Positions 43,476 through 60,233 of a stretch of 64,000 nt of DNA are shown here, in pieces. The stretch lies in the NCBI RefSeq assembly GCF_988243305.1, contig NZ_OZ547136.1; one strand, given 5' to 3'. Positions within the stretch are counted from its first letter, which is position 1; the number at the start of each line of letters is the position of its first letter. The position numbers and the translations under genes were made by a program. A model generated the notes under the pieces. That model saw nothing but the letters and a program-made list of their open reading frames with translations. It had not been told where the DNA came from and made no database searches.

Positions 43476-43596
43476 ATTGCCTCCGCATAAAGGATGAATA
43501 TAAAATAAACAGGCGGTCAGTGTACGCTTAACTGGTAAAGTCGGTGCCTGCCTCCGGGTGGATCATGTATGCGGGTTCGACCCCCGCCACTGACCG

Positions 43597-44928
43597 TTAA
43601 TCAATTTGTCCTTCCAGCACCTCAAGCATTCCGCCCCGGATATCCGATTTCAGCTTATCCATATTGATAACCCGGTAAGCATTCACAATCACATCCAGTT
43701 TGTCGGGCTGATGTTTCAGACTGTACGGTGCATTAACGGCAATCTGCACACTGCCATCCTTATTTTCCACGATATACATCAGATTTTTGTGCCGTTTGTC
43801 CCACAGCACCGCTTTTGGCTTTGCCAGCATTGCCGGTAAGCGCCCGAAGTCCTCTGGCATCAGGGCGATGCCGTCATTCTGATGTTTCACACTGTCTGCA
43901 TGGAGCACATTTTTACCGCTCATCGCCAGCAGGCGGGCCGGTGGCGTTCCCGTCCGGCTTTCCACTGCCTGCGCAATGCTTTCAGTCATAAAGCCCAGCG
44001 TGCGGATATCGTTACCACCTCGCCGGGTCTGCATGATGTTTTTTGCCCAGATGCGGAACGCCAGCTGCCGCTCCGGGCTGTTGTTCATCTCCTGAACCAC
44101 CATTTCCCGTAACGCCGGGCTTTTCACCTCGATCAGTTTGCGGATCAGCGCCTGGTCTGTGCCGAACGCTGCCGAGCCGGGGTTATATGACCAGCCCACA
44201 TCCGGTGTCATGGTTCTGGTGCCATCTGAATATGTGGTCACCGGCATTTCTCTGACTTCTCCGGTCTGTTTATCCACGCCAGCCTCAACATTGCGGGTGG
44301 AGAGATGATCCTCACCGGATGAAACGGATAACCCCATTGCATCCAGACGAGCCTGAGACAATGGCCGCACACGGCAGCGGCAGTTCCAGCCATTAGGTGG
44401 GTAGTGTGTTTTCCAGAACGGATCGTCATAGCGGAATACCAGACCGTTAAGGGCGGAATGCGACGGGCGGGTACGGCTGTCCATGACCGCCACATACTGC
44501 CAGAACGGATGCGTGTCCGTGTTGTTCATCATCTGCGTGTAACGCCCGGCATTGTAAGCCACACGGGTGTTCACGTTGTAAATCAGCGCCAGACGACGGG
44601 GACTGCCCAGTTGCACTTCTTCCGCGTTACCGTCGCTGTCCACCACAATCTGCTTTCCCCACCATCCCAGCTTTTGCAGGCGTGGCGTCAGCGTGCGGAT
44701 AAATGCTTTCTGTGAAATTCCCTCATCAATGGCCCGCTGCACTTCGGCCTGTAACGTGGTCACCACATCCAGGCGTGCCGCTTTTGCTGCCGTGAATGAG
44801 CGGGCATGAACATCCGCGGCTGTTTCGAACCAGTTCCAGCTGATATGCGCCCCTTTGACACGGAAGTATGCTACCGCCTCTTTTGAGGGAAGCGTGGCGG
44901 CATAACCTAAATCAATCCCCTGTGTCAT
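43597..44928 (-). CDS. head morphogenesis protein (Mu F-like)
   Basis: 443-aa ORF containing NGWNCRCR motif typical of Mu F/SPP1 gp7 family. Confidence 0.7.
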   Translation of the reverse strand: MTQGIDLGYAATLPSKEAVAYFRVKGAHISWNWFETAADVHARSFTAAKAARLDVVTTLQAEVQRAIDEGISQKAFIRTLTPRLQKLGWWGKQIVVDSDGNAEEVQLGSPRRLALIYNVNTRVAYNAGRYTQMMNNTDTHPFWQYVAVMDSRTRPSHSALNGLVFRYDDPFWKTHYPPNGWNCRCRVRPLSQARLDAMGLSVSSGEDHLSTRNVEAGVDKQTGEVREMPVTTYSDGTRTMTPDVGWSYNPGSAAFGTDQALIRKLIEVKSPALREMVVQEMNNSPERQLAFRIWAKNIMQTRRGGNDIRTLGFMTESIAQAVESRTGTPPARLLAMSGKNVLHADSVKHQNDGIALMPEDFGRLPAMLAKPKAVLWDKRHKNLMYIVENKDGSVQIAVNAPYSLKHQPDKLDVIVNAYRVINMDKLKSDIRGGMLEVLEGQID

Positions 44929-46501
44929 CCAGCATCCCCTTCATTTCCGCAGCAAACATGGCATCACTGAGCAGCGTCATCAGGCGGGAATCATCCATTT
45001 CACGATAAAGGGCAGGCAGGTCTGCCAGCGCATCCGCCAGCCCCCGCGTTCTGATGGCATCAATGACCGGCTCCAGTACCGGGTCGATGGCCTCCTGTAA
45101 GCGGCGGGCAGGCACCGCGTCCCCCATATCATCCAGTTCATCACGCGGCGTGCTTTTCGCTTCCGGCAGTCTGGCTGACAGCGCCGTCTGCTCTGTTTTT
45201 TCCTGTTTTTCCGGTGGTGTTTCCCTGTCGGTCTGAGCCGGTTCATTGCCACTCTGACGGACACGGAATATGGCTTCACCGGGCGTGGGCTGCGGAATAC
45301 CGGTCTGCTCCCGTATCCAGGGATCAGAAATATCCATCCCCGTACTGAGCTGCATCACCGCACTGGTGATTTTGGTGATATCACCTGGTTCTTTGGTCTG
45401 GAAGCAGATACGTGGCAGACGGCGGATATCAATAGTGTGCGTGGTGTTCAGGGCGTACAGCGGATACACCAGATCGCGGTTCAGGGTTGCAGCCAGCTGC
45501 CGTAAATCAGAATCCCTGATTTCCCGGCGCACCTCGTTATGCACCTCACCCAGCGAGCGCGCGCCTTTGTCTCCGGCTTCCGTGGTCAGCGTGCCGCCGA
45601 GTATTGCTTTGGAGATGGAACGCTCCCCCCACGAAATCATGGTTTCAAATGGATCGGCCTGACCGTTTGCTGCCGCCTGAAATTCCAGCGACATCCCGGC
45701 CGGGATGATCCCGCCTGTACGTCGCCCGATATCCATCACCGCCCGCATCAGGGCGCTTTTCTGCTCCGGTGTTGCCCCGGACGGGTATTTCCCGACCTTC
45801 ATCGGCAGTCCGTACACCTCCAGAAATTCGGCCAGATCGCGCACGGAATAGTTTTTGAAAATGAACGGCCAGATAAGCGTCCTGACAAGCCCCGTTGCGC
45901 CACCGTAACCGGTCCGTGAACGTGACTGATGCACTATCCAGCCAAAAGGCTGAAACGCCACCCCGGCATGGCTGCCGTCACGCAGCCGCAGTTCGCTCAA
46001 ATCATCCGGGTTAAGGCAGAAATGCCCGCTGTCACGCCAGCGGATGGCGCGGATGATGTGCATTTTACCGAGCATCCCGTGCTCAATTTCCATGCAGGAA
46101 TAGCCCTTCAGGATGGCATCCGTGGCGTCAAACAGCATGGCATCAAACCAGTCTGCGGAATGCAGATATTCGTCGAGCATTTCCGCGTCCTTTTTCTCAT
46201 TCGCGCTGGCGTTCGGTGGCGGCTCAATACTCCATGGCACCCCCTGAATGGCAAGACGTCGCTTGCCCAGCTCCGCAAAAAGGTGGGTGTCCTTTTCTTC
46301 AATATCAGCGGCCAGATCGGACTGGGCAATCAGATCGCCACGTTCAGCCCCGCGAAGGCACTGCGCCGCCCGGTTCGGGGTGATACCCGAAGCCGGATGT
46401 TCAATATAACGGCTGGCAATCTGCGGAATATCCAGCGCGGCACTCTGCATCTCCGGGTCAAAGGAGAAAGGTTTTCCGTCAGTATCAATGATGCGTCCCA
46501 C
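44912..46501 (-). CDS. portal protein (Mu H-like)
   Basis: 529-aa ORF directly downstream of large terminase. Confidence 0.7.
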   Translation of the reverse strand: MGRIIDTDGKPFSFDPEMQSAALDIPQIASRYIEHPASGITPNRAAQCLRGAERGDLIAQSDLAADIEEKDTHLFAELGKRRLAIQGVPWSIEPPPNASANEKKDAEMLDEYLHSADWFDAMLFDATDAILKGYSCMEIEHGMLGKMHIIRAIRWRDSGHFCLNPDDLSELRLRDGSHAGVAFQPFGWIVHQSRSRTGYGGATGLVRTLIWPFIFKNYSVRDLAEFLEVYGLPMKVGKYPSGATPEQKSALMRAVMDIGRRTGGIIPAGMSLEFQAAANGQADPFETMISWGERSISKAILGGTLTTEAGDKGARSLGEVHNEVRREIRDSDLRQLAATLNRDLVYPLYALNTTHTIDIRRLPRICFQTKEPGDITKITSAVMQLSTGMDISDPWIREQTGIPQPTPGEAIFRVRQSGNEPAQTDRETPPEKQEKTEQTALSARLPEAKSTPRDELDDMGDAVPARRLQEAIDPVLEPVIDAIRTRGLADALADLPALYREMDDSRLMTLLSDAMFAAEMKGMLDDTGD

Positions 46502-48168
46502 TACCAGCCCCCCCGATCAAATTCATGATATGCCTCATCGTCATCACGATAACCGCCCTCCATTGCCCGCGACCGCTCCGGTAGCGCCTGACAGGCTGAT
46601 TCATCCAGGATGAAGCCCTCCATGTATGACGCCCGGTTTGCCATACAGAGCGCCACGGCAAAATCACCATGGCGGCGGGCGTTCGCAGCCGTTGCGTTCT
46701 GGTCCTTCGTGCGCCCCTTGTCGATTTGCGGGATACCATTCACTACCTTCACATGGCGCAAATCATCAAGCGTGGTCTGATGGCGGGCGACGAGGATATT
46801 CTGATCTTCAAACTCGGCTTTCAGTTTTGGCATCCACTCGCCGTACCACTTCGGCGACAACATCACGCAGTCGATGATATCCGGGCCAAAGGCCAGCAGT
46901 GCGGCCTCTGCCAGATAGCCGCCGTTACCGGTGGCGTCGAACGCCGCACCGACCAGCGCCGGAACGCGGGTCAGGATGTACATCATCACCTGTTCCTGCT
47001 GGGCATACGGCAGGTTGCGCAGCTCCACGCGAAACACCTCGCGCTTTGCCAGGGATTCGGTGATTTCCAGCAGCACAAAGCAGGACAGGTCACCGGTGCG
47101 GGCAAAGTCTTCCCCGAAGCTGAAGCGGGAACGGGGATTTAATTTCTCTAAAAGCGGTTTTAAATGTTCTTCACACCAGGTTAAAACTTCCGATTCACGC
47201 AGCCATGCGGCACGGCTGATGAAGTTGTCCGGGGCTTCAAACGTCAGAATCGGGATGTCGCGGATCATCGCCATTTCAATAAGCGCGTGGGGGATATAGG
47301 CACCGCCGGATTTTTTCGGGATACAGCCGTATTCCTCGTCGGCATCCTCACGGGTCGGGGCGTTTTTGTAGAGATCATCACGCCATTTCTGCTCGCTTTC
47401 CGGTGACCATTCCTGATCGGTGACGTAACAGATACGACGGTACAGCCCGTCCGCAATGGCATCATCCAGGGTTATGCGGTGGACGCTGTAATCCTTGCGC
47501 CCCTCGCGGGCTTCCTGAATGTACTGATTAAACAGATTATCGACGCCGTTATGCGTGGAGATAATACGCACGCGCGCGCCCCACATAGTGAGCGCCATTG
47601 CCGCCTTGAGAAGCTCATCCAGTGACTCGTGGAACGCGGCTTCATCAATCACCACATCCCCCTGAAGGCCGCGCAGGTTTGACGGACGGGAAGACAATGC
47701 CTGAATTTTGAATCCACTGTTCGGAAAGCGGATCATGTAGGTCAAAATTTCTTCTTTTTTATCCCGATCCCAGAATGTCTGCTCATACACATCAGCATCT
47801 GCCAGCTGGTTAAAGGCACGGGAGAACAGCGCGCAGGCAGAAATATATTCCAGCGCCATCTCCTGCTTTGATCCCACATAAAACACATTGCGGCCACCAC
47901 GACGCTTCGGTTTTGCAGCAGTAATGACGTTACGCCCGGCTTCCGCCCAGGTAAGACCGGTGCGGCGGGATTTCTCCGCGATGCAGACCTGACTTTCATC
48001 TGCAAACCAGCGGGCCTGATAATCCAGAAACACCGGCATATCACCGGGCAAATCAAGGCTGTCCGGCACATCCACGCCCAGCAGGGCTTTTTCACCTGAC
48101 AGATCAATTTTGCGGGGAGGCGTCATTTGCATCAGTGAAGGCGACGTTTCTCTGGCTTTGTTCATCAT
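46501..48168 (-). CDS. terminase large subunit
   Basis: 555-aa ORF; size and position upstream of portal. Confidence 0.75.
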   Translation of the reverse strand: MMNKARETSPSLMQMTPPRKIDLSGEKALLGVDVPDSLDLPGDMPVFLDYQARWFADESQVCIAEKSRRTGLTWAEAGRNVITAAKPKRRGGRNVFYVGSKQEMALEYISACALFSRAFNQLADADVYEQTFWDRDKKEEILTYMIRFPNSGFKIQALSSRPSNLRGLQGDVVIDEAAFHESLDELLKAAMALTMWGARVRIISTHNGVDNLFNQYIQEAREGRKDYSVHRITLDDAIADGLYRRICYVTDQEWSPESEQKWRDDLYKNAPTREDADEEYGCIPKKSGGAYIPHALIEMAMIRDIPILTFEAPDNFISRAAWLRESEVLTWCEEHLKPLLEKLNPRSRFSFGEDFARTGDLSCFVLLEITESLAKREVFRVELRNLPYAQQEQVMMYILTRVPALVGAAFDATGNGGYLAEAALLAFGPDIIDCVMLSPKWYGEWMPKLKAEFEDQNILVARHQTTLDDLRHVKVVNGIPQIDKGRTKDQNATAANARRHGDFAVALCMANRASYMEGFILDESACQALPERSRAMEGGYRDDDEAYHEFDRGGW

Positions 48169-48413
48169 GCTTTACCTGTCAGAATGCTTTTGATTCGGGA
48201 CTCAAGCTCTTCAGTCATCACGTCCACGCCGCTCAACTCATCAGTGGCAGCCTCTGCCAGCAGCGAATGCAGTTGTTCCAGGGATATTTCCCCGGCAATG
48301 CTGAGTTCAGTCAACTCACGACATACCTTTATGGTTTCAGGAGGTAACTGTGTTGCAAGACTGAATGCTTTCTGATGGGCACTGCTCATCAGTGAGCGGT
48401 TATCTGTTGCCAT
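48165..48413 (-). CDS. hypothetical protein, paralogue of C-terminal segment of the upstream gp27-like protein
   Basis: C-terminus AATDELSGVDVMTEELESRIKSILTGKA aligns with AVTDELRGVDGMSEQIEFRIRQMLLGKA of ORF 48424..49005. Confidence 0.4.
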   Translation of the reverse strand: MATDNRSLMSSAHQKAFSLATQLPPETIKVCRELTELSIAGEISLEQLHSLLAEAATDELSGVDVMTEELESRIKSILTGKA

Positions 48414-48423
48414 GATTCACCTC

Positions 48424-49005
48424 CTACGCCTTACCCAGCAGCATCTGCCTGATACGGAATTCGATCTGCTCGCTCATGCCATCCACGCCGCGCAACTCAT
48501 CGGTGACCGCATTCGCCATCTCTTCAGCAAATGCGGCCCGGATTTCTTTTTCACGCTTAATGCTGCGCTCGGCGGCACTTTCTGCACGCTGTGCCGACAG
48601 GAGGATGTCCTTAATAAGGCGCATATCCACATCGCTGTCGCTGTTCAGGGATTCGGTGGCGGCACGCAGACGGCGGTACATCAGGGCACGGGACATCTCC
48701 AGAATCAGTGCCGTGGTTTCACCGGTCGGCTTATCCCCCAGTTCGGCCATCATGGCTTTTGTCTGCTCGCGTAAATCACGCAGATTACGGGCAATCAGCT
48801 CATTACGGGAGGCTTCCCGGCTGATGGCCGCCGGTGAGAGCTGCTGCTCTTCCGGCAGACCTGCTTCACGGATCAGACGGTTGATTTCCTCGCGGATCTG
48901 GACCTGCGTCAGACGTTTTTCACGCAGCATTTCCAGCAGCGGCTTACGGATGCTGTCGGGGAGCAAATCCACCTTGCGTACACGGCCACGCGTCGGCTTA
49001 TCCAT
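48424..49005 (-). CDS. terminase small subunit-like protein (Mu D/gp27 position)
   Basis: 193-aa ORF upstream of large terminase; synteny. Confidence 0.55.
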   Translation of the reverse strand: MDKPTRGRVRKVDLLPDSIRKPLLEMLREKRLTQVQIREEINRLIREAGLPEEQQLSPAAISREASRNELIARNLRDLREQTKAMMAELGDKPTGETTALILEMSRALMYRRLRAATESLNSDSDVDMRLIKDILLSAQRAESAAERSIKREKEIRAAFAEEMANAVTDELRGVDGMSEQIEFRIRQMLLGKA

Positions 49006-49007
49006 CG

Positions 49008-49298
49008 TTACCCCCTTGCGCGTGGTTTCTTCACACCCGGAACAGTGGCACGACCTTCCGCCACATCCTGACCCCGGCCGGTCAGTTCAGCGATGAAATA
49101 ACCGTTAACAAGCGTGCGCTTACGCACCAGTCCCTGCTCAGCAAGCCAGGCAATGTGGGTGTGAACGGTGTCGCGGGACACGCGGTGGCCGTAATCATCC
49201 AGGCAGTCCTGAAGCACGGATTCGCCCAGTTCGCCGTTGTAATCCGCCAGCGACCGCAGAATGACAAGACGCTGATCTTCAGTAATGAAATCACTCAT
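49008..49298 (-). CDS. hypothetical protein (Mu gp26 position)
   Basis: 96-aa ORF; synteny only. Confidence 0.4.
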   Translation of the reverse strand: MSDFITEDQRLVILRSLADYNGELGESVLQDCLDDYGHRVSRDTVHTHIAWLAEQGLVRKRTLVNGYFIAELTGRGQDVAEGRATVPGVKKPRARG

Positions 49299-49602
49299 TG
49301 TGTTTTTTCCTTACAGCCTGCTCCAGCAGCAGTTCGTTCTGGTGGGAGACGGATTTCAGGGTGGCATTGGTGGCCTTAAGCTCACCGCGCAGGGTGGTGA
49401 TTTCGATATTGAGTCTGTTCACCTCCTGCTGCGTGGGCAGGCCGGAAATCCGGCTCTCCACCCGCTCAACCCGGTCGGAGAGTTTTTCAAAGGCCTCGCG
49501 GGGGACAAAGGTTTTGCGCATCAGCGCCATAAAGATCCCCCCGGCCGTGGCTGTTGCCGACAGGATCGGCACGACATAATCTTTAACGATGCTGACCCAC
49601 AT
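49291..49602 (-). CDS. hypothetical membrane protein (single TM helix; Mu gp25 position)
   Basis: N-terminal hydrophobic segment VVPILSATATAGGIFMALM then coiled coil. Confidence 0.4.
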   Translation of the reverse strand: MWVSIVKDYVVPILSATATAGGIFMALMRKTFVPREAFEKLSDRVERVESRISGLPTQQEVNRLNIEITTLRGELKATNATLKSVSHQNELLLEQAVRKKHNE

Positions 49603-49810
49603 GACCGGCCTCCATGATGCTCTGGCAGTTCACACAACGGATGGCATCCGGCACGGCAACCAGACGGGCGGCCGGAATGTCACCCCCGCAGTCTGCGCAT
49701 ACACGCCTGCCCGGAGTCTCCTCCACCCGGCACTTACGTGTCAGCCGGTCACAAAGGGCGCGTTCTGTTGCCCGCTCCACGACTGCCTGAGCACAATCTG
49801 AATCATCCAT
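49583..49810 (-). CDS. TraR/DksA-family C4 zinc-finger protein
   Basis: Start at MDDSDCAQAVVER within longer ORF; CADCGGDIPAARLVAVPDAIRCVNCQ four-Cys motif. Confidence 0.6.
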   Translation of the reverse strand: MDDSDCAQAVVERATERALCDRLTRKCRVEETPGRRVCADCGGDIPAARLVAVPDAIRCVNCQSIMEAGHVGQHR

Positions 49811-49820
49811 ACCTTTTTCC

Positions 49821-50192
49821 TTACTTCGTCTTTCCTGCCGGAACAGCAGTCGTTCCGGCCATATCAGTAAATTCATGCTGTCGCTGTGCCTCCAGACGGC
49901 GGATGCTGGCCTTGTCCACGTTGCAGTTCTTAATCACCGCCAGCAGTTGCAGGTTGTAAGTGACCGATGCGCCAAACGTGAACGGCTGCGGCACAGGAGG
50001 AACCAGACAGTCAGCCAGCCATTCAGCGGGGATCGGCACCGGCTTCACCGGCACGTATTTCACAGACGGCCCGCCGCACCCGGTCAGCCACATCATCAGG
50101 CACAGGAACAGAGGCCGCAGGCACCGTTGCCAGCGACCGGCGGACAATGCTCTGCTGTTCCTCGCTGTGCTGCATGTTCTGCTGTTTTTCAT
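49821..50192 (-). CDS. putative outer-membrane spanin lipoprotein (o-spanin)
   Basis: Lipobox LTGC after hydrophobic stretch, Pro-rich periplasmic part; begins inside i-spanin frame. Confidence 0.45.
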   Translation of the reverse strand: MKNSRTCSTARNSRALSAGRWQRCLRPLFLCLMMWLTGCGGPSVKYVPVKPVPIPAEWLADCLVPPVPQPFTFGASVTYNLQLLAVIKNCNVDKASIRRLEAQRQHEFTDMAGTTAVPAGKTK

Positions 50193-50523
50193 TCGTGGCC
50201 GCCTTACTGATTTGTGAAATGAGTTGCAGGGTACGTTGCTGGTTTGCCAGCACCAGACGGGCTTCGTCCCGTTCACGCACAAGCACATGATTATTGTCTT
50301 CAAGACGCTGTGTCTTCTGGTGCATTCCCCATACCACGGCAGCCAGCACGCTCATCACCCCCAGCGCCGCCATACACCCTCCGGCAATCAGGGCCGGTAA
50401 GGGATTATTCACCGCAGCCACAGCACACCCCGGAGCACCACAACGACACACAACAGCGCAATCATGAGTGGTCGCCAGAAGCGGTTCAGACTTTCGGCAA
50501 ATCGTAGCGACATAACCATTCAT
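50023..50523 (-). CDS. putative inner-membrane spanin (i-spanin)
   Basis: TM segment ALIAGGCMAALGVMSVLAAVVWGM followed by coiled coil; immediately downstream of endolysin; start uncertain. Confidence 0.4.
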   Translation of the reverse strand: MNGYVATICRKSEPLLATTHDCAVVCRCGAPGCAVAAVNNPLPALIAGGCMAALGVMSVLAAVVWGMHQKTQRLEDNNHVLVRERDEARLVLANQQRTLQLISQISKAATNEKQQNMQHSEEQQSIVRRSLATVPAASVPVPDDVADRVRRAVCEIRAGEAGADPR

Positions 50524-50986
50524 CCGCCGAACGGCGGGCCTCAAGACCGGGGAGTTTTACCCCCTTTGAATAAATCCAGCGGATATACTGCTTACAGGAC
50601 GCGGGCATCTGCCCGGCATTGATCAGGCGCAGAAGCGTGGAGTTGCGAAAGTTCGTTTCACCGGCCCAGAAGATCCACGAAGCCAGCGCCACCGTCTGAC
50701 CACGGGTAAGCGGCACCTGAACATGACGATCGATAGCCGCAAAGGCCCATTTCATGTCCTTTTCCAGCAGTTCCAGACATTCTTCATCGGTTTTTGTCAT
50801 ACCCGGTTTCACATCCGGGCCGGTATGGCCGTGGCAGATGGTGGGGGTGCCGGTGGGGTCGAGATACGTGGTGTTTTCTTTCCCTTCCCAGTAGCCGGTG
50901 TAGTGCGTGGCAATAGTGAACGTCCCGGCTCCGGCCAGAACAAGGGCAATCAGCTTTTTACGCAGTGGCGCGGGGAGTTTTGGCAT
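50486..50986 (-). CDS. endolysin (GH24 lysozyme) with N-terminal signal-anchor-release-like segment
   Basis: E...D...T catalytic pattern (YWEGKENTTYLDPTGTPTICHGHTG) after hydrophobic Gly/Ala-rich N-terminus KLIALVLAGAGTFTIA. Confidence 0.8.
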   Translation of the reverse strand: MPKLPAPLRKKLIALVLAGAGTFTIATHYTGYWEGKENTTYLDPTGTPTICHGHTGPDVKPGMTKTDEECLELLEKDMKWAFAAIDRHVQVPLTRGQTVALASWIFWAGETNFRNSTLLRLINAGQMPASCKQYIRWIYSKGVKLPGLEARRSADEWLCRYDLPKV

Positions 50987-51057
50987 TGTTACGCTGTCTC
51001 ATGGTGTTCTCTGAGCCAGCGTAACCGTGGGAAAAAGGGGGCAGGATTTGCGGAATA

Positions 51058-51480
51058 TCAGAAAAGCCGGGGCTGCGTGCGCTCCTGATGCAGGCGACGC
51101 TGGTTGCGGATAACGGAGTAAATCTGCGTCTCTGACATCTGGTAATGGCGGCGCAGGGTTTCAATTTTTTCGCCCTGGCTCCAGCGGGAAAAAATTTCAT
51201 TATTGCGCAGTTCGGTGAAAAGGGATTCACCGACCGGGAGATAATAACCACGCCCGCCCATGTACCCGGCCTGTGCGGCTGCAACCTTACGGGCAAGCAT
51301 TCCCGCCTGAGCAGGTTCAATCCCCTGACGGTGCAGTTCAGCACTGATCACATCAACCAGGTCCCGCAGCGTGCCGGGCCAGTTCTTTTTCAGCTCATCA
51401 TCAGGAATATCATCCAGACGGTCAATCAGCGCGTGCAGCTGTTCGCTGTCACCAAACATGCTCATCTGTGTTTCAGCCAT
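51058..51480 (-). CDS. Mor/C-family transcriptional activator
   Basis: 140-aa ORF with C-terminal HTH LRRHYQMSETQIYSVIRNQRR resembling Mu Mor/C. Confidence 0.7.
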   Translation of the reverse strand: MAETQMSMFGDSEQLHALIDRLDDIPDDELKKNWPGTLRDLVDVISAELHRQGIEPAQAGMLARKVAAAQAGYMGGRGYYLPVGESLFTELRNNEIFSRWSQGEKIETLRRHYQMSETQIYSVIRNQRRLHQERTQPRLF

Positions 51481-51550
51481 ACCCGCCTCCGGTCATCATT
51501 ACACAGGGCAAGTTTAAAATAAAAATCCCGCGCTGTGGCGGGATTTGGGG

Positions 51551-52063
51551 TTAAAAGGGGGAGGATTCTTCATACAGCCTGCAAACGCGCTCATAACTCA
51601 TCACTGTACGCGCTGACATCCCCAGCACATCCAGCATCTTGCGGCGGTGCCAGCGTTTGAGACGCTCCAGCACATCAGAGGCCAGCGCGGGGTGTTGTTC
51701 CAGCCACTGCCAGTTAGCCACACCTTCGCCGCCGTTCTGAGCGACCGTCTGCGATTTCACCCAGCGGTTAAGGGCTGTTTCCCCGCCATCAGAGATAAAG
51801 CCCTGCCGGTGCATCACCTTCCAGATGGCGCGAATTTTGGCGGTCACCGTACCCGGTTTTAAGGCCCGGTTAACCGGCTTCTGACGCACTTTAAAACCGC
51901 GTTTTTTGAAAACATCCAGCACGCGGGATAACTCATCCGGTGACATATCCCGGCAACTGGGTTTACCGGTGGCTGCCAGTAGTACGGATGTGTAGGTCTC
52001 ATGGTCAAGCTGTAGATCGCGTTTTGCGACATGTATTAAGGTAATCAGGGAAGCGCGATTCAT
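51551..52063 (-). CDS. GemA/gp16-like protein
   Basis: N-terminus MNRASLITLIHVAKRDLQLDHETYTSVLLAATGKPSCRDMSPDELSRVL resembles Mu-like gp16 (GemA) family as I remember it. Confidence 0.6.
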   Translation of the reverse strand: MNRASLITLIHVAKRDLQLDHETYTSVLLAATGKPSCRDMSPDELSRVLDVFKKRGFKVRQKPVNRALKPGTVTAKIRAIWKVMHRQGFISDGGETALNRWVKSQTVAQNGGEGVANWQWLEQHPALASDVLERLKRWHRRKMLDVLGMSARTVMSYERVCRLYEESSPF

Positions 52064-52127
52064 TATCGTGTCTCCGTAACAACAGGCGGCATGGCAACGC
52101 CGCCCGGATAAAACTAAAGGTATCGAT

Positions 52128-52475
52128 ATGAAAATAGATTACGATGAAGTATTAAGTATTCTCACAACTTTTCAGGATGCTGAAACACCTTTCCTTACAC
52201 TACAGGATCTGGGCATGGCTGAGGCAGAAGGAGAGGAAAAGGATAAAAAAGTTTTTCATCTTATGCTTCTCGCTGATAATGGCTCAATTGTTAATGGTGA
52301 TATGCAGTCAGAAACACCCAAATATATTGGTTTCTTTTTCCATTCTCTGGGCGTTGGTTTCAGAAACACGCCCATTATGCTTACCCAGCAGGGGCATGAT
52401 TTAGCTAACGCCCTGAGAAAAAACCAATCCTTGAAAGAATCAAAAAGGAGTTTACAGACGCACCATTTGATCTAA
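52128..52475 (+). CDS. hypothetical protein (115 aa) on opposite strand within early operon, low GC
   Basis: AAAGG SD 7 nt upstream of ATG; AT-rich; only plus-strand gene in this otherwise minus-strand early region. Confidence 0.5.
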   Translation: MKIDYDEVLSILTTFQDAETPFLTLQDLGMAEAEGEEKDKKVFHLMLLADNGSIVNGDMQSETPKYIGFFFHSLGVGFRNTPIMLTQQGHDLANALRKNQSLKESKRSLQTHHLI

Positions 52476-52498
52476 TTAAAGAAGTTACCAAATCAATG

Positions 52499-52807
52499 TT
52501 AACCAGGTTCGTCAAAGAACGTATTGGGATTGACTGAACAACTTAATTCAGCCAGTAATCGCAGGGCGGCGACAGCCGCCTGCTTGTCACTTCTTTTAGC
52601 TATTTCCGCAAGAGTATGCACAATCCATAACGGACTTAACGCCACGGCTGAATCCAGAATCATGTCATCCATAATAATTTCTGGCATATCCCGCTTGTCA
52701 CATTCTTTATCCATAAAAGAAACGAATTTCTCTGCATCTTCCGGTTTCATGCCTCCGGCGATAAGGATTTTGCGATATTCATAAGACGATCTTAATTCAA
52801 TACTCAT
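52499..52807 (-). CDS. hypothetical protein (102 aa)
   Basis: ORF in low-GC island. Confidence 0.4.
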   Translation of the reverse strand: MSIELRSSYEYRKILIAGGMKPEDAEKFVSFMDKECDKRDMPEIIMDDMILDSAVALSPLWIVHTLAEIAKRSDKQAAVAALRLLAELSCSVNPNTFFDEPG

Positions 52808-52822
52808 TATTCACCTGCCTGC

Positions 52823-53215
52823 TTAATCTGTTTCCAGTGCTTTGCTACGGGCTATAGCCTCACATTCAAAAAATACCGACTCCGGCACGCGCTCTTTTAA
52901 TTCACGAACAAGGAAATCATTAACGCGTTCATGACGTCTTATATTTCTTTCCTTTTCCTCCTGGCGCAATACAGCAAGGCGGTATTCAACAGCCCGGCGT
53001 TGTTTCTGAAAGACAGCCAGTGCTTTTCTGGCAGCATTACGCCATGCATCATCGCCACATGGTGCGTATTCAAGCTGAAATTTAATCTCTTCAATAGTTT
53101 CTTTGATTTTTGCCAGCAAGCTAAGACAGTCGCTTATTGTCTCCAGCTTTTCATTATCAATATAACTTCTCACGCATTCACCTCCCGTAATTCCGGTAAA
53201 GCCGAAATATGACAC
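52823..53215 (-). CDS. hypothetical coiled-coil protein (start probably internal)
   Basis: ORF overlaps upstream gene by 46 nt; Lys/Glu/Arg-rich. Confidence 0.4.
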   Translation of the reverse strand: MSYFGFTGITGGECVRSYIDNEKLETISDCLSLLAKIKETIEEIKFQLEYAPCGDDAWRNAARKALAVFQKQRRAVEYRLAVLRQEEKERNIRRHERVNDFLVRELKERVPESVFFECEAIARSKALETD

Positions 53216-53499
53216 CAGTGCGTCACCTGTCCGTCTTCATCTTCAAGGCAGGCTCCGGTTTCTTCATCAACAAAAAAGCCTTCATACCCCATATGGCCGA
53301 TGCGCAGCTCCTGACGGTGACCATACTGAACAATCAGCACGACAGCCTCCATATCAGGTGGGAAAGTATCATTCAGTGAATGCCAGGGATAACCGCGTAA
53401 ATCCCCGAAATAAACACCGGTCAGCGTTCCGCCACAGAGCGGCATTCCGGCGGCACACACAAGAGGTTCATCTGATTCAACAAATAAGGTCGTTATCAT
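53170..53499 (-). CDS. hypothetical protein (109 aa)
   Basis: ORF, 4-nt overlap with upstream gene. Confidence 0.4.
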   Translation of the reverse strand: MITTLFVESDEPLVCAAGMPLCGGTLTGVYFGDLRGYPWHSLNDTFPPDMEAVVLIVQYGHRQELRIGHMGYEGFFVDEETGACLEDEDGQVTHWCHISALPELREVNA

Positions 53500-54047
53500 G
53501 GCGTTAACTCCCGTAATACAGCGTCCTCGGCAGTCCGGCGACGGTAATAAACTGCGTGAGCAGAATGTTCAGATATTCCAAACTTTTCGCCAATTTCCCG
53601 GAATGACAGACGGCGTGGGTAATCGGAATCACGCAGCGCACGTATAAGACGTACATCATCATCAGATATGCGCGTGCCGGGGCGTAACTCTCCGCACTTT
53701 GTTAATCCAGCACCAATCATTCCTGCCCGACATCTGACAGAATCTTTATTACGTCCGAGATATTCTCCCATTTGCTGGCAGGTCATTGTTCTGGCATTTT
53801 TTCGAATAAACTTATCTTCATCAGGTGTAAATCTTGGGTGTTTATATTTCAGTAACTCCGGGTATGAACTGCGCAATACACCAGTCCGGTTATATACAGC
53901 CCAGACAGTTCTTTTTATTCTGGCAGCAATATCCTTAACCGGGGTGGATGAATAAAGCGCAATCAGCAGCGCATCTTCTTCAGGTGTCCACGGACGGACA
54001 TGAGCGGGGGCGCGACCTTTTAGTCCCATGGGTTGTAATTTCATCAT
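53496..54047 (-). CDS. hypothetical DNA-binding protein with repeated HTH-like modules
   Basis: Three similar segments WTPEEDALLIALY...IKRTVWAVYNR / FTPDEDKFIRKNAR...MGEYLGRNKDSVR / ISDDDVRLIRALR...FREIGEKFGISEHSAHAVYYRR. Confidence 0.45.
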   Translation of the reverse strand: MMKLQPMGLKGRAPAHVRPWTPEEDALLIALYSSTPVKDIAARIKRTVWAVYNRTGVLRSSYPELLKYKHPRFTPDEDKFIRKNARTMTCQQMGEYLGRNKDSVRCRAGMIGAGLTKCGELRPGTRISDDDVRLIRALRDSDYPRRLSFREIGEKFGISEHSAHAVYYRRRTAEDAVLRELTP

Positions 54048-54050
54048 GCA

Positions 54051-54566
54051 TCACCCCCTGACTCGCTTTTCAGCAGCATAAAACTCATCAGACAGTATTT
54101 CGGTCATTTTCTGTTTTGCGGGTTTTACGCCGCACTGAAGGTAAATCACATCGTCAACGCAGAACCACTTCACAGGGCCAAACAGGATTGCCGAGAAATC
54201 AATACCCAGCCAGAACAACAGCGCATCGGTTCTGGCATACGTGACGGGCGAATATTCACGCCACAGACTGTTCAGTTCATCAGAGGCAACACGCAGGGTT
54301 TTAGGGATACGTGATGTGCGCGGTGTGCAGCTCCAGCCATTCGACGCAGTCGGTTTTCGCCATAAGTCGCGATGAAAAGGATATTTGTCCTCCGTAAAAC
54401 GCAGTCCCTTAAAGCAAAATCCACTGATACCGGATACAAATACCGACCGGCACGCAACATTCAGCACGGCCTCAAGGCGTTTTGCCTCATCCTTAACTTT
54501 CTGGCAGTCCTGCTGGTATTTTTGCCACGCAGCCAGCGCGGAAGGGTTTGATGTTTTAAAGAACAT
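54051..54566 (-). CDS. hypothetical protein (171 aa)
   Basis: ORF translationally coupled to neighbours. Confidence 0.4.
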   Translation of the reverse strand: MFFKTSNPSALAAWQKYQQDCQKVKDEAKRLEAVLNVACRSVFVSGISGFCFKGLRFTEDKYPFHRDLWRKPTASNGWSCTPRTSRIPKTLRVASDELNSLWREYSPVTYARTDALLFWLGIDFSAILFGPVKWFCVDDVIYLQCGVKPAKQKMTEILSDEFYAAEKRVRG

Positions 54567-55099
54567 TACGCCACCTCCGCAGATATCCCGGCAGGCGCTG
54601 CTGTCCGGTCAACAATCAGGTAGCGCAGAACATGTTCAGTGATATTCCAGCCGCTTAAACCGCAGATAATGACGCCCAGGCGTATGTCGATATACGCCAT
54701 CACAAACTGGGGCACGCCTTCTTTCATGGCCTGCTCATCAACTTCAGCCACCACATAAACGGTTTCACAGGTCAGAACGCCCTGAGCAAATTCCCACGCC
54801 ATCGACGGAATATCATGCCCCTCAATCCATGGCAGGGATTTTCTGAAGCCGCACCACTGAACATCATCAGCCGCAGATTCCTGGCTGCATTTGCGACGAA
54901 CCGGCTGCACCGGGCGGGGGCGCGGAATATCATAAAAACCGTTACATTCCGTCAGCACGCCTGCATCAACCGCATCACGCAGAAAATAAACCATGGAGGA
55001 TGGCGGCATATTCATTTTTTCAGCCAGTACACCGCAGGTCAGGCGGCCATAAATACGCAGCCAGTTTTTAACCCCTTCAAGCACTTTTGCATCAATCAT
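54566..55099 (-). CDS. hypothetical protein (177 aa), possible N-terminal winged helix
   Basis: ORF downstream of gam. Confidence 0.4.
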   Translation of the reverse strand: MIDAKVLEGVKNWLRIYGRLTCGVLAEKMNMPPSSMVYFLRDAVDAGVLTECNGFYDIPRPRPVQPVRRKCSQESAADDVQWCGFRKSLPWIEGHDIPSMAWEFAQGVLTCETVYVVAEVDEQAMKEGVPQFVMAYIDIRLGVIICGLSGWNITEHVLRYLIVDRTAAPAGISAEVA

Positions 55100-55244
55100 G
55101 ATTTATTTCCCCACCACATTATTAATGACGATATAAACGTATTTCATATTTCTTAACCCTTATTTTCTGTTTTCAGGCGCAAGCAGTCCCCTGACGCGAG
55201 CGCCATAATTAAAATGAAGTGATATTTAATTGATTAATGCGGTG

Positions 55245-55775
55245 TTATTTATTCAGTCCGGCGTCCTGTTCAAAAGGCTCGACATAAAAACTTTCAGCGC
55301 CTTTATTCACCTTGATACCGGCAATGCCTTTCACCGCATCCGGCTCCGCCAGGACGGCTTCCTTGTTCACTTCCTCTTTCGTGCGGATGAAACGCTCAAG
55401 CCCCATACGGCGCAGCATTTCAATCACACCTTCCACATCACGGCTGACGCTGCATGATGGCGTTCCCAGCCGCCATGACACCGTTCCGGTGGTCAGATTG
55501 GCTGTTTTGGTTTTGCCGCCGTTCGTCAGCTCATCACGGTTGGTTTTGCACCAGTCCTGAATCCCTTTAAAAAGCACTTTGATTTGCTTTTTAAGATTTT
55601 CAATCTGCGGCGTATAACGGGCGGTGATTTCTGCCACTTCGTCATTCATCGCCGTTTCCAGGCGCAGCGCCTCTCGCTGAATATCTCCCAGGGTGCGGAT
55701 ATCACGGCTGACTTCTTCCCGGGTCTGCGGTGCCGCCTCGGCTGCGGCCTTTAATTTTGTAACGCGTTTAGCCAT
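55245..55775 (-). CDS. gam: Gam-like host-nuclease inhibitor (DNA-end binding, Ku-like)
   Basis: MAKRVTKLKAAAEAAPQTREEVSRDIRTLGDIQREALRLETAMNDEVAEIT...ELTNGGKTKTANLTTGTVSWR closely resembles Mu Gam. Confidence 0.8.
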   Translation of the reverse strand: MAKRVTKLKAAAEAAPQTREEVSRDIRTLGDIQREALRLETAMNDEVAEITARYTPQIENLKKQIKVLFKGIQDWCKTNRDELTNGGKTKTANLTTGTVSWRLGTPSCSVSRDVEGVIEMLRRMGLERFIRTKEEVNKEAVLAEPDAVKGIAGIKVNKGAESFYVEPFEQDAGLNK

Positions 55776-55786
55776 TTTGTTTTTCC

Positions 55787-56107
55787 TTATTGCAGTGTGC
55801 CTGATGCTTTATGCACGCGGTGGCGTTTAATGATGGCATCCGCTCCAAAAGACTGTGCAGATGCCTGAAATTCCGCTGAGAGAAACTGAATAATTGCAGG
55901 ACTGTGATACTGGAGAATACTTGCATAAACGTCACAGAGTGACGTCGGCCTGTTATCCGTATCACGTTCTGTTTTCACATCCACTCCAATCTTTTCATGC
56001 ACTTCAACACAGTCATTGCCTGCCAACTTTTCGTCATGCGAAACATGATTAAATTCAAAAATAACGCGTACTTTGCTCATGGAATTACCCCTGTTGATTA
56101 AATTCAT
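55787..56107 (-). CDS. hypothetical protein (106 aa), tandem paralogue A
   Basis: Starts MSKVRVIFEFNHVSHDEK; N-terminus similar to adjacent ORF. Confidence 0.4.
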   Translation of the reverse strand: MNLINRGNSMSKVRVIFEFNHVSHDEKLAGNDCVEVHEKIGVDVKTERDTDNRPTSLCDVYASILQYHSPAIIQFLSAEFQASAQSFGADAIIKRHRVHKASGTLQ

Positions 56108-56357
56108 TACCGTTAATAACCCCGGAAGCCATGCCTCTGTCTTTCATGAATGCACTGGCTTTCATTGCCACAAGCTCTGCGAAGTTTCTGCTTTCCGCGA
56201 GCATAACCACCCCAAAAATCATGGCGGGTCCATCACCTTTCTGCTTTATCCCGGTTGAACGTATGTCCAGACTTACCCCCATGCGCACTGTTCCATCAGC
56301 GTTTTTATGGATAACGTGCTCCTTATATTCGAAAATAATGTGTACGACTTTACTCAT
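56085..56357 (-). CDS. hypothetical protein (90 aa), tandem paralogue B
   Basis: Starts MSKVVHIIFEYKEHVIHKNADG. Confidence 0.4.
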   Translation of the reverse strand: MSKVVHIIFEYKEHVIHKNADGTVRMGVSLDIRSTGIKQKGDGPAMIFGVVMLAESRNFAELVAMKASAFMKDRGMASGVINGNEFNQQG

Positions 56358-56635
56358 CCTCTGGTCCTCGTTCTGTTTGGATAACTGACCCGGCGTCTGA
56401 CCTCACGGCAGAACCGAATCATGGCATTAAAGGCTTCTTCCTCCGTCACCGCTTCCGGTATCCCCGGAACCAGTAACTGCTCCTGTTCATCACGTCCATG
56501 ACGCGCCATAACCTCAATCACATGCCGTACCGTGGCAGGCTTTCCGGCAACTATCGGCAATGCACCTTCCGGCAGGACGTAACCAAACTCAATAAGACCA
56601 CTCGACCACGCCCATGCAATGAGATTTTTTTTCAC
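56354..56635 (-). CDS. hypothetical protein (93 aa)
   Basis: ORF, coupled to neighbours. Confidence 0.4.
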   Translation of the reverse strand: MKKNLIAWAWSSGLIEFGYVLPEGALPIVAGKPATVRHVIEVMARHGRDEQEQLLVPGIPEAVTEEEAFNAMIRFCREVRRRVSYPNRTRTRG

Positions 56636-56636
56636 C

Positions 56637-56903
56637 TCACACCTCCCAGTAAACCGTGCAGCCGCTGATGCGGGTGGCCTTCACACGGCGGCGCAGGCCG
56701 TTGGTCTGTATGGTGATTTCAATTTCACCGGTTCCCTGCACGTTGCCTACCGGCGGCGTGGTTTTCAGTGCAAAACGTTGCGGATAGCGCTTACTGCGTT
56801 CCAGTACCGCACCGGCAAGTTCGGTCAGACGGCGCGCGCTGTTCAGGGAGTCGAATAAATTCATTTTGTTACCGCAGGATTGCATATTCATATAACACCT
56901 CAT
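56637..56903 (-). CDS. hypothetical protein (88 aa)
   Basis: ORF. Confidence 0.35.
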   Translation of the reverse strand: MRCYMNMQSCGNKMNLFDSLNSARRLTELAGAVLERSKRYPQRFALKTTPPVGNVQGTGEIEITIQTNGLRRRVKATRISGCTVYWEV

Positions 56904-57131
56904 TTAGCTGACTTGTTTCGCACCAACAGAACGGCATATTCCGCTGTAAACTTCTGTCGCACCTTCGCGATCAAGTCCGGCAGATATCACCATTCGTGTG
57001 CGGTCATTAAATTCAAAAAGTAAATCGCCACATTCTTTATTTTCGGCCAGTGAAATCACCTTCACGTTATCGAAATTAACCAGGTAAAAGCGTCCGTAAA
57101 TATCAGGAATATTAAATACCGCCATAATCAC
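56904..57131 (-). CDS. hypothetical small protein at the kil position (directly downstream of B)
   Basis: 75-aa ORF overlapping B stop by 4 nt; in Mu the gene at this position is kil; assignment by position only. Confidence 0.35.
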   Translation of the reverse strand: MIMAVFNIPDIYGRFYLVNFDNVKVISLAENKECGDLLFEFNDRTRMVISAGLDREGATEVYSGICRSVGAKQVS

Positions 57132-58069
57132 ACCTGTGAGAGTAATTCAGGGTTGGTATAAACCTCTTTAAAGGCCGCATTAATATGTTTTTCTGTCAGC
57201 GCCGCGCCTTCACCGCTGGCGGTGAGCCACGCCTGGTTAAGCGTATGTGTCAGAACGCGTAACGCTCCCGGCTTTTCAGCGATAGCCTGCATGACGGCCA
57301 GCTCAGCCTCACCACTGATCCCCCACGCCATGGCAATGGCCAGCACATCCGCCTTTTTGGCCTTGCGAAGTTGTTTTGTACGGGCAAGACGGCTGAACAG
57401 GCGCGATAAATCATCAAAGGCGCGGCGTCCACCTTTAAACAATCCGCGCGGGTTACCAATAAGCACCATCCCGATCCCCGTGGCGTCCTGAATTGCCCGG
57501 AGTTGCTCCAGACCGTCAATACCAAGATGATCCGCCTCATCCACAATCACCAGTCCACGCGTTCCCATCAGGCGACGGCGGATGGCGCGGGATAATGCCC
57601 CTTTGTTCGCGCGGGTGTAATCAATCCCCAGCGCATCGGCCAGCTCCAGCAGACACTCCGTGACGCTGGAGTGCGCGGGTGACAGGGTGATCATCCAGGT
57701 GTTTGGTTGCTCCTGGCAGTAATTACGGGCAGTGGCCGTTTTACCCACACCCGGTACGCCCACAATAACGTTAATACAGCCCATCAGGCGAACCGCCTGA
57801 AACAGTGCGCGCAGCTCCTGGACTGTCTGAGTTTCCACAAACTGCGGCGGTTCCGGCAGTGCGCTTTGTTTATTCCAGTTCTCATACCAGGAGCGCAGGG
57901 AAGCAGCCACAGCAGCGTTATCGCCTTTATATTTTCCCTTACGGAAAGCCGATAATGTGCCGTCGGAAATTCCCGCCTCTCTGGCGATGGCATACTGCGT
58001 CAGTACGCCGCCATCAATAAGTTCATCAATGGTCTTGATTACATCGTTAATATCGGTCATATTATTCAC
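57128..58069 (-). CDS. B: transposition ATPase / target DNA activator B (AAA+)
   Basis: 313-aa ORF, Walker A GVPGVGKT, N-terminal HTH; directly downstream of transposase. Confidence 0.85.
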   Translation of the reverse strand: MNNMTDINDVIKTIDELIDGGVLTQYAIAREAGISDGTLSAFRKGKYKGDNAAVAASLRSWYENWNKQSALPEPPQFVETQTVQELRALFQAVRLMGCINVIVGVPGVGKTATARNYCQEQPNTWMITLSPAHSSVTECLLELADALGIDYTRANKGALSRAIRRRLMGTRGLVIVDEADHLGIDGLEQLRAIQDATGIGMVLIGNPRGLFKGGRRAFDDLSRLFSRLARTKQLRKAKKADVLAIAMAWGISGEAELAVMQAIAEKPGALRVLTHTLNQAWLTASGEGAALTEKHINAAFKEVYTNPELLSQV

Positions 58070-58142
58070 CTCGCTTGAGACAGCATTCTCCGAGACTGAA
58101 ACCTCAAATAACCTGAGTCACTCCTCGGGTTATTTTTTTATT

Positions 58143-60233
58143 TCAGGCCAGCGGATCACTTTCTTTTAATTTCGCTTCGAGCAACTGCAATCCCCGCTGG
58201 AAATTACGCTCGTATTCTTCATCAGGTTCATCGTCAGCGACCGGTTGCTGAACGATCACCGTATTACCCACAGGGCGGTATATATTTTCCAGCCACGGCT
58301 CCTGTGGCTTGTGCTCCAGCACGTTGACAATCTCATCCTCGGCATCACGGATTTTTTCCTCTGCGCGTTTACGCATGCCTTTAAGGCGCTGCTGCTGTTT
58401 GTGGTATTCCGCGCTGACCGGGAAGGCTTCGCGTTTATTGCCGTCCCATACCGCCTCGCAAATCACGCTGCCATCCAGGCGACGTACGGTAATTCGTTCG
58501 GCATCATGAATGTCATAGCTGATAAGCACCTTACGACCATGCTCGTCACGCAGCTCGGGCGCGTAGTAAATATTATTCAGCCAGCGTATTTCACAGCGTC
58601 TTACAGGGCGCTCCACCATCGGCCGGAACATATCCCGCAGTTCAACATCGGACAGCCATTCAATTTCCGTGTCCTCTTCCGCCAGGCGTTTTTTTCTGAA
58701 CTCCGCCGGGCTGTAATGTTTACCGTTCGGCTTCATGGGTAATTCATCGTGCGGCCGGTTGTTGTACCACTCAACACCATCACGAATGGCATCAATCAGT
58801 TCAGCCCAGGACGGTGAATCACGCATCGCTGACTGCTGCCGGGCGTTCAGCCGTTTGCCCTGTTGCAGGGCAGTAAATGCCGAGCGTAAATCGCGGTTGG
58901 TTTTGCGTAACGTCTCGCGATCTGCACCTTTCCCGAAATAGGTGCGGTATTTACGGGCTATGCGCATCGGTAATGTGCGGTTAAGCCGTTCGATAATGCC
59001 TCGTCCCTGCGGATTACCGGCAATCCCGGTCGGGTGATTAATCCCCAGTCGCGGCAGTATCCCCACAACCTCCTTATCCAGGATGTCGGCGGTTTCCCCG
59101 GAGCCGTTATCCGAGTAATACAGAAACGGTTTGCCGTGATGGCGAATGCCGTGCTGTATGGCACCGGCTACGGCGAAAACATTTTCAGCCAGGTCAAGGC
59201 TCCAGCCCACCACAAAGCGCGTGCCACCGTCGATAACAAAGGTCACTTCCGGTGCAAATGGCCGACCGTGAACCGGGTGTGCGCATTTCAGCTTCATGCC
59301 GTGACCGTCACCAATCCAGACATAATTCACCGGCATTTTTGACCAGTCGCGGCGCGTGAATCCCTCAAGCTGGCGGTATTCACTGCCGGTCACCCGGCCT
59401 TTTTGTTTCACCACTTCCGGCAGTTTCTTCATTGCGCGGCGAATGGTGTCATAAGACGGCATGATATCGAGCATATAAGGCTCATCAGCGTGCCGGTGCT
59501 GCCATTCAGCGACAAAATCCTCGTAAGCCTCGGTCATTGGTCGGCCGTTTGACTGGCGATACTGCGCCAGAAATTCGGGCAGCCAGTTAATATCTTCGGC
59601 TTTTATTTCCTGGCGCTTACCCGGTGCCAGTAAAAGCAGGCGTTCAGCGGCGTTCTGCGCCTTGTTAAAGGCCGCAATCCAGCGTTTCAGCGTGATTTCA
59701 CTTAACGCGCGGCTGTTTCCCTTTTTGGCGTTCGCCGTCTCAACCATTGCCACAATGCGCTCGTCCAGCTGCGAACGTGCCAGGTTGTCAACGATAAACC
59801 GGATAGCCTTCGCACAGCTGAAACCAGGTTGTTGCGCGACTTTCAGAACTTCGCTGACGATCGCGATTCGTGCATCAGCCACCTGGCGCTGGTTTTCAGT
59901 CAGGGCATTAAGGCGTTCGACCATCAGTTGTGGTGATCCGCGATATGCCTCCACCGCATCAACCACGGCAGGCGAGCGTCTGGCCTTTGTCACCACTGGA
60001 GCCGGTGATTCATCGACTTTTTGAGTCATCAGTTGCAGGGCGTAGCGTTCACGTAATGCCTGCTGCGTCACTTCAGGTAAACAGTCGATGCTGTATTCAG
60101 TTGCTTTAGAGCCTGAGCGACGACGGGAACAACAGCTTTTCCCTTGTACGTAACGTTGTAATGCCTGGCGAATACCTTTTGTTGTAGCAGGCATTCCGGG
60201 CGCACCAATCAGTTCTTTTGCAATGACATACAT
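58143..60233 (-). CDS. A: Mu-type DDE transposase A
   Basis: 696-aa ORF directly downstream of ner; N-terminal DNA-binding domain and central catalytic region of Mu A size. Confidence 0.85.
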   Translation of the reverse strand: MYVIAKELIGAPGMPATTKGIRQALQRYVQGKSCCSRRRSGSKATEYSIDCLPEVTQQALRERYALQLMTQKVDESPAPVVTKARRSPAVVDAVEAYRGSPQLMVERLNALTENQRQVADARIAIVSEVLKVAQQPGFSCAKAIRFIVDNLARSQLDERIVAMVETANAKKGNSRALSEITLKRWIAAFNKAQNAAERLLLLAPGKRQEIKAEDINWLPEFLAQYRQSNGRPMTEAYEDFVAEWQHRHADEPYMLDIMPSYDTIRRAMKKLPEVVKQKGRVTGSEYRQLEGFTRRDWSKMPVNYVWIGDGHGMKLKCAHPVHGRPFAPEVTFVIDGGTRFVVGWSLDLAENVFAVAGAIQHGIRHHGKPFLYYSDNGSGETADILDKEVVGILPRLGINHPTGIAGNPQGRGIIERLNRTLPMRIARKYRTYFGKGADRETLRKTNRDLRSAFTALQQGKRLNARQQSAMRDSPSWAELIDAIRDGVEWYNNRPHDELPMKPNGKHYSPAEFRKKRLAEEDTEIEWLSDVELRDMFRPMVERPVRRCEIRWLNNIYYAPELRDEHGRKVLISYDIHDAERITVRRLDGSVICEAVWDGNKREAFPVSAEYHKQQQRLKGMRKRAEEKIRDAEDEIVNVLEHKPQEPWLENIYRPVGNTVIVQQPVADDEPDEEYERNFQRGLQLLEAKLKESDPLA

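Follow-up and report, generated by a model that had tools for sequence, protein, structure and literature searches.

One C-type Mor/C activator, and most likely a two-tier lytic programme, in an E. coli Mu-like prophage

Transcription activators of the Mor/C family bind a dyad that lies just upstream of, or overlaps, the -35 region of promoters lacking a -35 element, and they activate sigma-70 RNA polymerase. [quoted passage not shown] In phage Mu, two such proteins act in a two-step relay, Mor and then C (PMC4390567, PMC2582627). Mu C ends a middle operon (gp18-20, C) that is driven by the Mor-dependent promoter Pm, and the late promoters of Mu, which have no -35 element, require C bound at -52..-34 (PMC2582627). 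Among the core genes of the reference transposable phages, 'late regulator Mor/C' is listed as one gene (PMC8705779).

The stretch of DNA analysed here, hereafter the window, is 64 kb long and contains a Mu-like prophage inserted in dcyD, the host gene for D-cysteine desulfhydrase, whose neighbours are fliY, fliZ and fliA. The features that define the prophage and the region of the activator gene are the following:

22423..61496, minus strand: the whole Mu-like prophage, ~39.07 kb, in dcyD, with a TACA 4-bp repeat at both ends
61484-62296: N-terminal part of dcyD, the host gene split by the prophage
22136-22558: C-terminal part of dcyD, the host gene split by the prophage
60522-61235, plus strand: repressor gene (c)
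51551..52063, minus strand: gemA (gp16 family), the final gene of the early operon (Pfam GemA PF06252, E 2.8e-28; 47% identity to Mu GemA)
51058..51480, minus strand: single Mor/C-family transcription activator gene, C-type, 140 aa (Pfam PF08765, E 6.7e-31)
50486..50986, minus strand: endolysin (phage lysozyme) gene, the first late gene (Pfam PF00959, E 6.8e-36)
41700-42824, minus strand: head protease gene I
26917-27489: gin-like invertase gene
22551-23483: mom

Read along the minus strand, the gene order starts with the repressor c (itself on the plus strand), ner, the transposase gene A, B, and the kil-like, gam, gp11-like and gp12-like genes. Next come the gene of the SANT/Myb 'D5-like' protein (183 aa), three short ORFs, a DUF2513 gene of opposite orientation and gemA, followed by the 140-aa gene, the lysozyme gene (lys), a spanin-like gene, a TraR/DksA gene, a DUF2730 gene and the head and tail genes, and it ends with the gin-like invertase gene, a 684-aa SASA/DUF6645 gene and mom. 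The activator gene is separated from gemA by 70 bp and from the lysozyme gene by 71 bp.

Several features of the element can be recorded in their own right. Target duplications of Mu are 5 bp long; here the junctions, near 22419-22423 and 61496-61500, have a direct repeat of only 4 bp (TACA), the fifth base being unlike, and a 4-bp duplication is annotated in the GenBank record LC727895 for its related Mu-like insertion. The 684-aa gene between the gin-like invertase gene and mom (24777-26831, minus strand) encodes a SASA carbohydrate-esterase domain together with DUF6645; it looks like cargo (a moron), possibly acting on surface polysaccharide. The gap between the F-like and G-like head genes (43476-43596) carries a conserved tRNA-like sequence on the plus strand, which is also present in the related elements L008 and L009. 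It was matched neither by ARAGORN nor by Rfam at gathering thresholds, and its equivalent in strain JE86-ST02 bears the PGAP label 'tRNA-OTHER'. Just past the lysis genes, a TraR/DksA-type C4 zinc-finger protein is encoded at 49583-49876 (minus strand), and the position of this gene is kept in many Mu-like elements (L007, L008, L009, L011, L013, HS6 and Pmp9). No homologue was detected in Mu, and a role of the protein as an RNA-polymerase-binding modulator of late transcription is possible. Finally, the DUF2513 gene (52128-52475, plus strand) and the adjoining ORFs of 102 and 130 aa (52499-53215, minus strand) are all three missing from the relative L007. The GC content of 52001-54000 is 0.447, against about 0.56 in adjoining prophage DNA, and the DUF2513/orf102/orf130 stretch just upstream of gemA looks like a recently exchanged accessory segment.

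[quoted passage not shown] The protein matches the Pfam Mor model PF08765 over practically its full length (model positions 2-107 of 107) with 106.9 bits against a cutoff of 24.9, and PHROG 532, 'late transcriptional activator', at 1.4e-44. In BLASTP its identity is 40% to Mu C (gp21), over 136 residues, and 28% to Mu Mor (gp17), and the solved structures rank in the same order, with Mu C (PDB 9l0x) the best match at 2e-28, followed by Mor (PDB 1rr7) at 2.5e-11. Like Mu C, it is 140 aa long, is encoded directly upstream of the endolysin and combines a GG..Y.P.G linker with a C-terminal HTH. The family-invariant linker residues are kept as G75, G76, Y80, P82 and G84, and the HTH region aligns without gaps to residues 80-134 of Mu C. 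The net charge is -6 over residues 1-70 and +4 over residues 71-140, compared with -3 and +5 in Mu C. Membership of the family is consequently indicated by the full-length profile match, by size and charge, by the linker residues and HTH, and by a position between gemA and the lysis genes of a transposable phage. The features shared with Mu Mor are the family itself and the place after gemA in the gene order. An identical protein occurs on >1000 public contigs, where it is already named 'Mor transcription activator family protein'. The original prediction, made from the DNA alone, had placed a 140-aa Mor/C gene ~70 bp before the endolysin gene, and both this assignment and its coordinates are correct.

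The same prediction held that no second paralogue was evident among the ORFs, and proposed a search of the early ORFs with a Mor-family HMM, in which a second member would have spoken against it. We built a family HMM from 147 diverse members, drawn from an exhaustive search of 1.8 billion representatives, and searched with it, all filters disabled, the complete six-frame set of 1512 stop-to-stop ORFs (25 aa or longer) of the window. The search returned a single match, the 140-aa gene (E 7e-52), and the runner-up (E 2.4) lies outside the prophage. As a control, Mu Mor, Mu C and the query were left out of the HMM; in Mu DNA it still recovered C (4e-48) and Mor (1.1e-33), and in the window it again gave one match and no second. 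Two paralogous Mor/C genes in series were therefore not found in the window, the same HMM giving one match here against two in Mu. When hhalign compared the family profile with the prophage ORFs of 50 aa or more, 318 in all, it also revealed no diverged copy: the activator itself was found with 100% probability, and the second best hit, at 17.5%, spans only the HTH of the 183-aa SANT/Myb-like early protein. Pfam scans of about 20 early ORFs gave no further Mor match. The alternative that a second activator is present and too diverged to be recognised is thus unsupported, since the HMM, the profile-profile comparison and synteny all yield no copy.

It is improbable that a middle-stage regulator of another kind is hidden among the early ORFs in the role of Mor. 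The candidate that comes first to hand is the following:

53496-54047, minus strand: 183-aa SANT/Myb 'D5-like' protein, with three Myb/HTH-like repeats and a match to PHROG 323, 'transcriptional regulator, D5-like', at 2e-52

These repeats and the PHROG match would suit a regulator, and the protein ranks second in the hhalign comparison, though at the low probability given above and through the HTH alone. It has, however, no match to the Mor/C fold, and its homologue was not detected in L008, L009, L011 or L013, which nevertheless have the layout of terminator, activator and lys. Moreover, gp9 of Mu bears the same RefSeq name, 'transcriptional regulator, D5-like', and therefore a regulator so named coexists with Mor in Mu and does not replace it; a tblastn search of Mu with the 183-aa protein itself gave no match. 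This protein is seen only in the E. coli lineage of the prophage, with 72% identity in L007. As for the other early ORFs, orf130, orf102 and DUF2513 are missing even from L007, a relative that is 87% identical, which also counts against a hidden regulator among them. Only orf109, which is acidic, is kept across relatives with the same layout, and it gave no HTH-type match in Pfam or hhalign. In our assessment, neither the SANT/Myb protein nor the TraR/DksA zinc-finger protein is a likely substitute regulator.

One Mor/C gene is the rule for Mu-like phages, and the Mor-then-C pair of Mu is the exception. A tblastn search with the activator against 50,697 phage records matched 48, among which two matching places occur only in 14 Muvirus records (Mu, D108, SfMu and Yersinia Mu-like phages). 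The HMM yields exactly one copy for each of BcepMu, HS6 and MuM16-1, whose genomes are complete, and for the Pmp9 record, and one copy each for the enterobacterial or metagenomic relatives L002, L007, L008, L009, L011 and L013; L010 and L012 also gave one copy each, on short contigs with too little DNA to exclude another. For the majority of these single-copy proteins, C gives the higher score and Mor the lower. In the four phages named first, the single member (BcepMu gp01, MuM16-1 p13 from Shewanella, HS6 gp44 from Pseudoalteromonas and Pmp9_0007 from Pasteurella) is encoded after gemA and before the lysis and head genes, as in the window. Closer to the present element, the E. coli 'Mu-like phage' LC727895, inserted in an Stx phage, has the same layout and an activator that is 84% identical. 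Of 5426 complete E. coli genomes, 230 have the arrangement of gemA, Mor and lysozyme, already annotated, and they form two classes by sequence identity (80-90% and 95-99%); Salmonella (L008) and further enterobacterial elements (L011, L012) show the same arrangement. Since every Mu-like phage or prophage examined outside Muvirus has one Mor/C gene, the pair of Mu is the unusual state. The searchable literature contains no explicit sentence to the effect that only Mu has two, and the claim rests on the present survey together with the core-gene list (PMC8705779). The single activator of this prophage is accordingly ordinary, because one copy is normal for Mu-like phages. The suggestion that the regulatory cascade may be shortened fits these data, but it misleads where it implies a departure, as all the non-Muvirus elements examined have one activator.

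The survey also bears on whether a recent deletion removed mor and the first part of a middle operon and left a defective prophage. Compared with Mu, mor and gp18-20 are indeed missing between gemA and the C-type gene. We nevertheless regard such a loss as very improbable: the layout is the same in the 230 E. coli genomes of both classes, in Salmonella L008 and in L011 and L012, the prophage otherwise appears complete over 39 kb from c to mom, and single-copy activators occur in isolated Mu-like phages that form plaques or can be induced.

Two candidate C-type promoters were found upstream of late genes:

51040..51064, minus strand: candidate activator-binding block of the lys promoter, TTTCTGATATTCCGCAAATCCTGCC, overlapping the stop codon of the activator gene and resembling Mu Plys TTTCCTGTCACCATAATCC
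51018..51023, minus strand: -10-like hexamer TACGCT of the lys promoter, 20 nt after CAAATCC, an exact pattern match
42831..42877, minus strand: second late-promoter candidate, upstream of gene I, TTTCTGAAGTCCCGCAAAACCGGCC, with TATGCT 20 nt after CAAAACC

The intergenic gaps upstream of lys (71 bp) and of gene I (177 bp) have in common the block TTTCTGA(T/A)(A/G)T(T/C)CCGCAAA(T/A)CC(T/G)GCC. Within it begins a module without a -35 element, CGCAAA(T/A)CC, 20 nt and TA(C/T)GCT, whose spacing is identical upstream of the two genes. In ungapped comparison, 20/25 positions of the block and 30/46 positions of the longer stretch match, and none of 500 shuffles was as good. Both modules are kept in L002 and L007 (98% and 87% identical), the gene I copy with the same motif, spacing and hexamer. 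Part of the lys promoter region is homologous to Mu Plys, where the C element TTTCCTGTCACCATAATCC lies at -52..-34 and TAGACT follows ATAATCC by 21 nt. An (A/T)AATCC motif thus stands 20-21 nt before a weak -10, without a -35, in both, and the prophage and Mu also agree in CTG(G)C(A)TCAGAGAA, which follows the lys hexamer and surrounds the start site. When the whole of Mu was scanned in a comparable way, Pm and Plys, both known, were the sole results. A canonical sigma-70 promoter was detected neither in the gap before the activator gene nor in that before lys. From the shared module, the likeness to Plys, the check on Mu and this lack of a canonical promoter, we infer that the lys and I modules are C-type late promoters of the prophage.

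Some properties of these sites call for a more careful reading. A clear dyad was not found in the candidate sites upstream of lys and I. The ATG of gene I lies only 6 nt after the TATGCT hexamer, so that the predicted mRNA of gene I would be almost leaderless, which counts against this -10 candidate. The 14-nt motif CCNCAAATCCNGCC is not enriched in the window when up to two mismatches are allowed (12 found, 7.75 expected), and it is informative only as exact and one-mismatch copies in three intergenic gaps. A copy at 36525-36538 was set aside, as it lies within the tape-measure gene, and the region upstream of mom showed no such motif. Furthermore, the module is not universal, since the more distant L008 (18430-18527) and L009 (18140-18200) carry upstream of gene I three to four tandem repeats of TTTTGAA(A/C)G in place of the CGCAAAACC-type module. 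These repeats suggest that the head-gene promoter of the two relatives receives another regulatory input, either in its place or in addition.

The prophage also differs from Mu in what lies in front of the activator gene:

51523..51546, minus strand: intrinsic-terminator hairpin AAATCCCGC-CACAGC-GCGGGATTT, from a terminator scan, followed by the T-run TTATTTT (51522-51516)
51511..51516, minus strand: -10-like hexamer TAAACT, 6 nt past the hairpin, a candidate promoter of the activator gene without a -35 and with a putative function

Mu mor overlaps the gemA stop codon and lies within the early transcript, and Mu C closes its middle operon; here, by contrast, a terminator separates gemA from the activator, and the gene stands alone, 70 bp past gemA and directly behind the early terminator, with no Mor. 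Compared with a Mu-type middle operon, a terminator is present and a -10-like hexamer is kept, the dependence of this promoter on an activator being only putative, and the prophage has no gp18-20 homologues. As RNA, the hairpin folds at -13.5 kcal/mol (z -3.7). Its arms, the T-run and the hexamer are kept in L007 (the 87% class of E. coli), L008 (Salmonella), L011 (in two copies) and L012, the hexamer reading, at about the same position, TAAACT in L007, TATAGT in L008 and TATACT in L011 and L012; the decayed prophage L009 keeps the hairpin arms alone. The flanking sequence has diverged in all the elements with the block, whose activators are only 48-84% identical; those of L011 and L012 have 40-57% identity to Mu C or Mor. 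Other assignments in this gap were rejected: TGTAAT (51498-51503), with which as a -10 the centre of the hairpin would fall at -43.5, a position like that in Mu Pm, is absent in L007 and L008, and neither L011 nor L012 keeps the weak -35 GCCACA that the hairpin loop offers 17 bp ahead of TAAACT. In L011, whose activator has 57% identity to Mu C, a 140-aa gene with a signal-peptide-like N-terminal stretch is inserted between gemA and the activator gene (5366-6003), and it is flanked by two near-identical blocks of terminator hairpin and TATACT, as though the insertion had duplicated the block.

An arrangement of this kind is not shared by all single-activator phages. The activator gene overlaps gemA in BcepMu and MuM16-1 and the preceding ORF in HS6, and because of this overlap it lies inside the early operon in these phages. 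The window, L008, L011, L012 and Pmp9 instead have an intergenic gap before the activator, and in the enterobacterial ones this gap holds a terminator hairpin. The conserved block of terminator and -10-like hexamer before a stand-alone C-type gene is, in our opinion, the one element here that is mildly new.

Taken together, these observations make it most likely that this sole Mor/C activator, a counterpart of C, would run a two-tier lytic programme without a Mor-driven middle step. The early operon would lead to the single activator, and the activator to the late promoters. At the lys and I modules the activator would, like Mu C, bind in dimeric or tetrameric form and recruit sigma-70 RNA polymerase to the two promoters. 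Its first expression would most likely come from partial read-through of early transcripts past the terminator after gemA, because the gene sits behind a strong intrinsic terminator. This expression could be reinforced by the conserved -10-like hexamer just past the hairpin, which may be activator-dependent.

It can be hypothesised, as a refinement of this two-tier programme, that positive autoregulation replaces Mor, the hairpin being at once the early terminator and the binding site of a Pm-like promoter without a -35. Read-through would then prime a little activator, which would turn on its own gene and the late promoters in a switch-like commitment. We consider such autoregulation possible, although it is not the reading we favour. 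It is consistent with the conservation of the hairpin arms AAATCCCGC and GCGGGATTT, the T-run and the -10-like hexamer beside activators of 48-84% identity and diverged flanks. The left arm of the hairpin, moreover, carries the AAATCC core that is also found in the lys promoter, and its AATCC is the core of the late-promoter sites in the window, L009, L011 and Mu. The hairpin site matches the lys site at 12/14 positions (5/1000 shuffles), a short match, and its match to the gene I site is not significant (173/1000 shuffles). Mu itself offers a parallel: on our own reading of the sequence, with +1 at base 9224, the Mor site AGTAA-AGCCGG-TTAAT lies at -51..-36 and overlaps the hairpin after mor, taken as the early terminator. 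That hairpin, with its T-run right after mor, resembles the hairpin/-10-like block of the prophage. The placement at -51..-36 is consistent with published work (PMC4287176, PMC4390567).

Other details argue against autoregulation. The distance from the site to the -10-like hexamer is 22-24 nt, compared with 20-21 nt in the late promoters, and no counterpart of TTTCTGA, which forms the distal part of the late module, stands before the activator gene. In L009 the late sites read GTAATCC and the hairpin CAAATCC, with no co-variation between the two. GC-rich hairpins are in any case common as terminators, and their conservation may reflect shared descent, while TGTAAT, the hexamer that would put the hairpin centre at -43.5, is not kept in L007 or L008. 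Self-activation is thus a weak reading, because of the spacing, the missing distal half-module and the lack of co-variation in L009. That the sole C-type activator acts as a self-activating switch across the enterobacterial clade, with feedback primed by read-through in the place of Mor, is a proposition that we hold to be rather doubtful. The two-tier programme remains the preferred reading.

Beyond annotation, the result carries little weight; a single activator is the standard state, and the gene already carries this annotation. The lys and I modules and the block of terminator and -10-like hexamer provide targets for mapping the timing of a two-tier Mu-like cascade, and they could also be used to build inducible late-gene reporters for a prophage that is widespread in E. 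coli (230/5426 complete genomes). For the family as a whole, the comparison corrects the expectation, derived from Mu, that Mu-like phages need two activators in series: a single 'late regulator Mor/C' is the general design, and the Mor protein of Mu is a lineage-specific addition.
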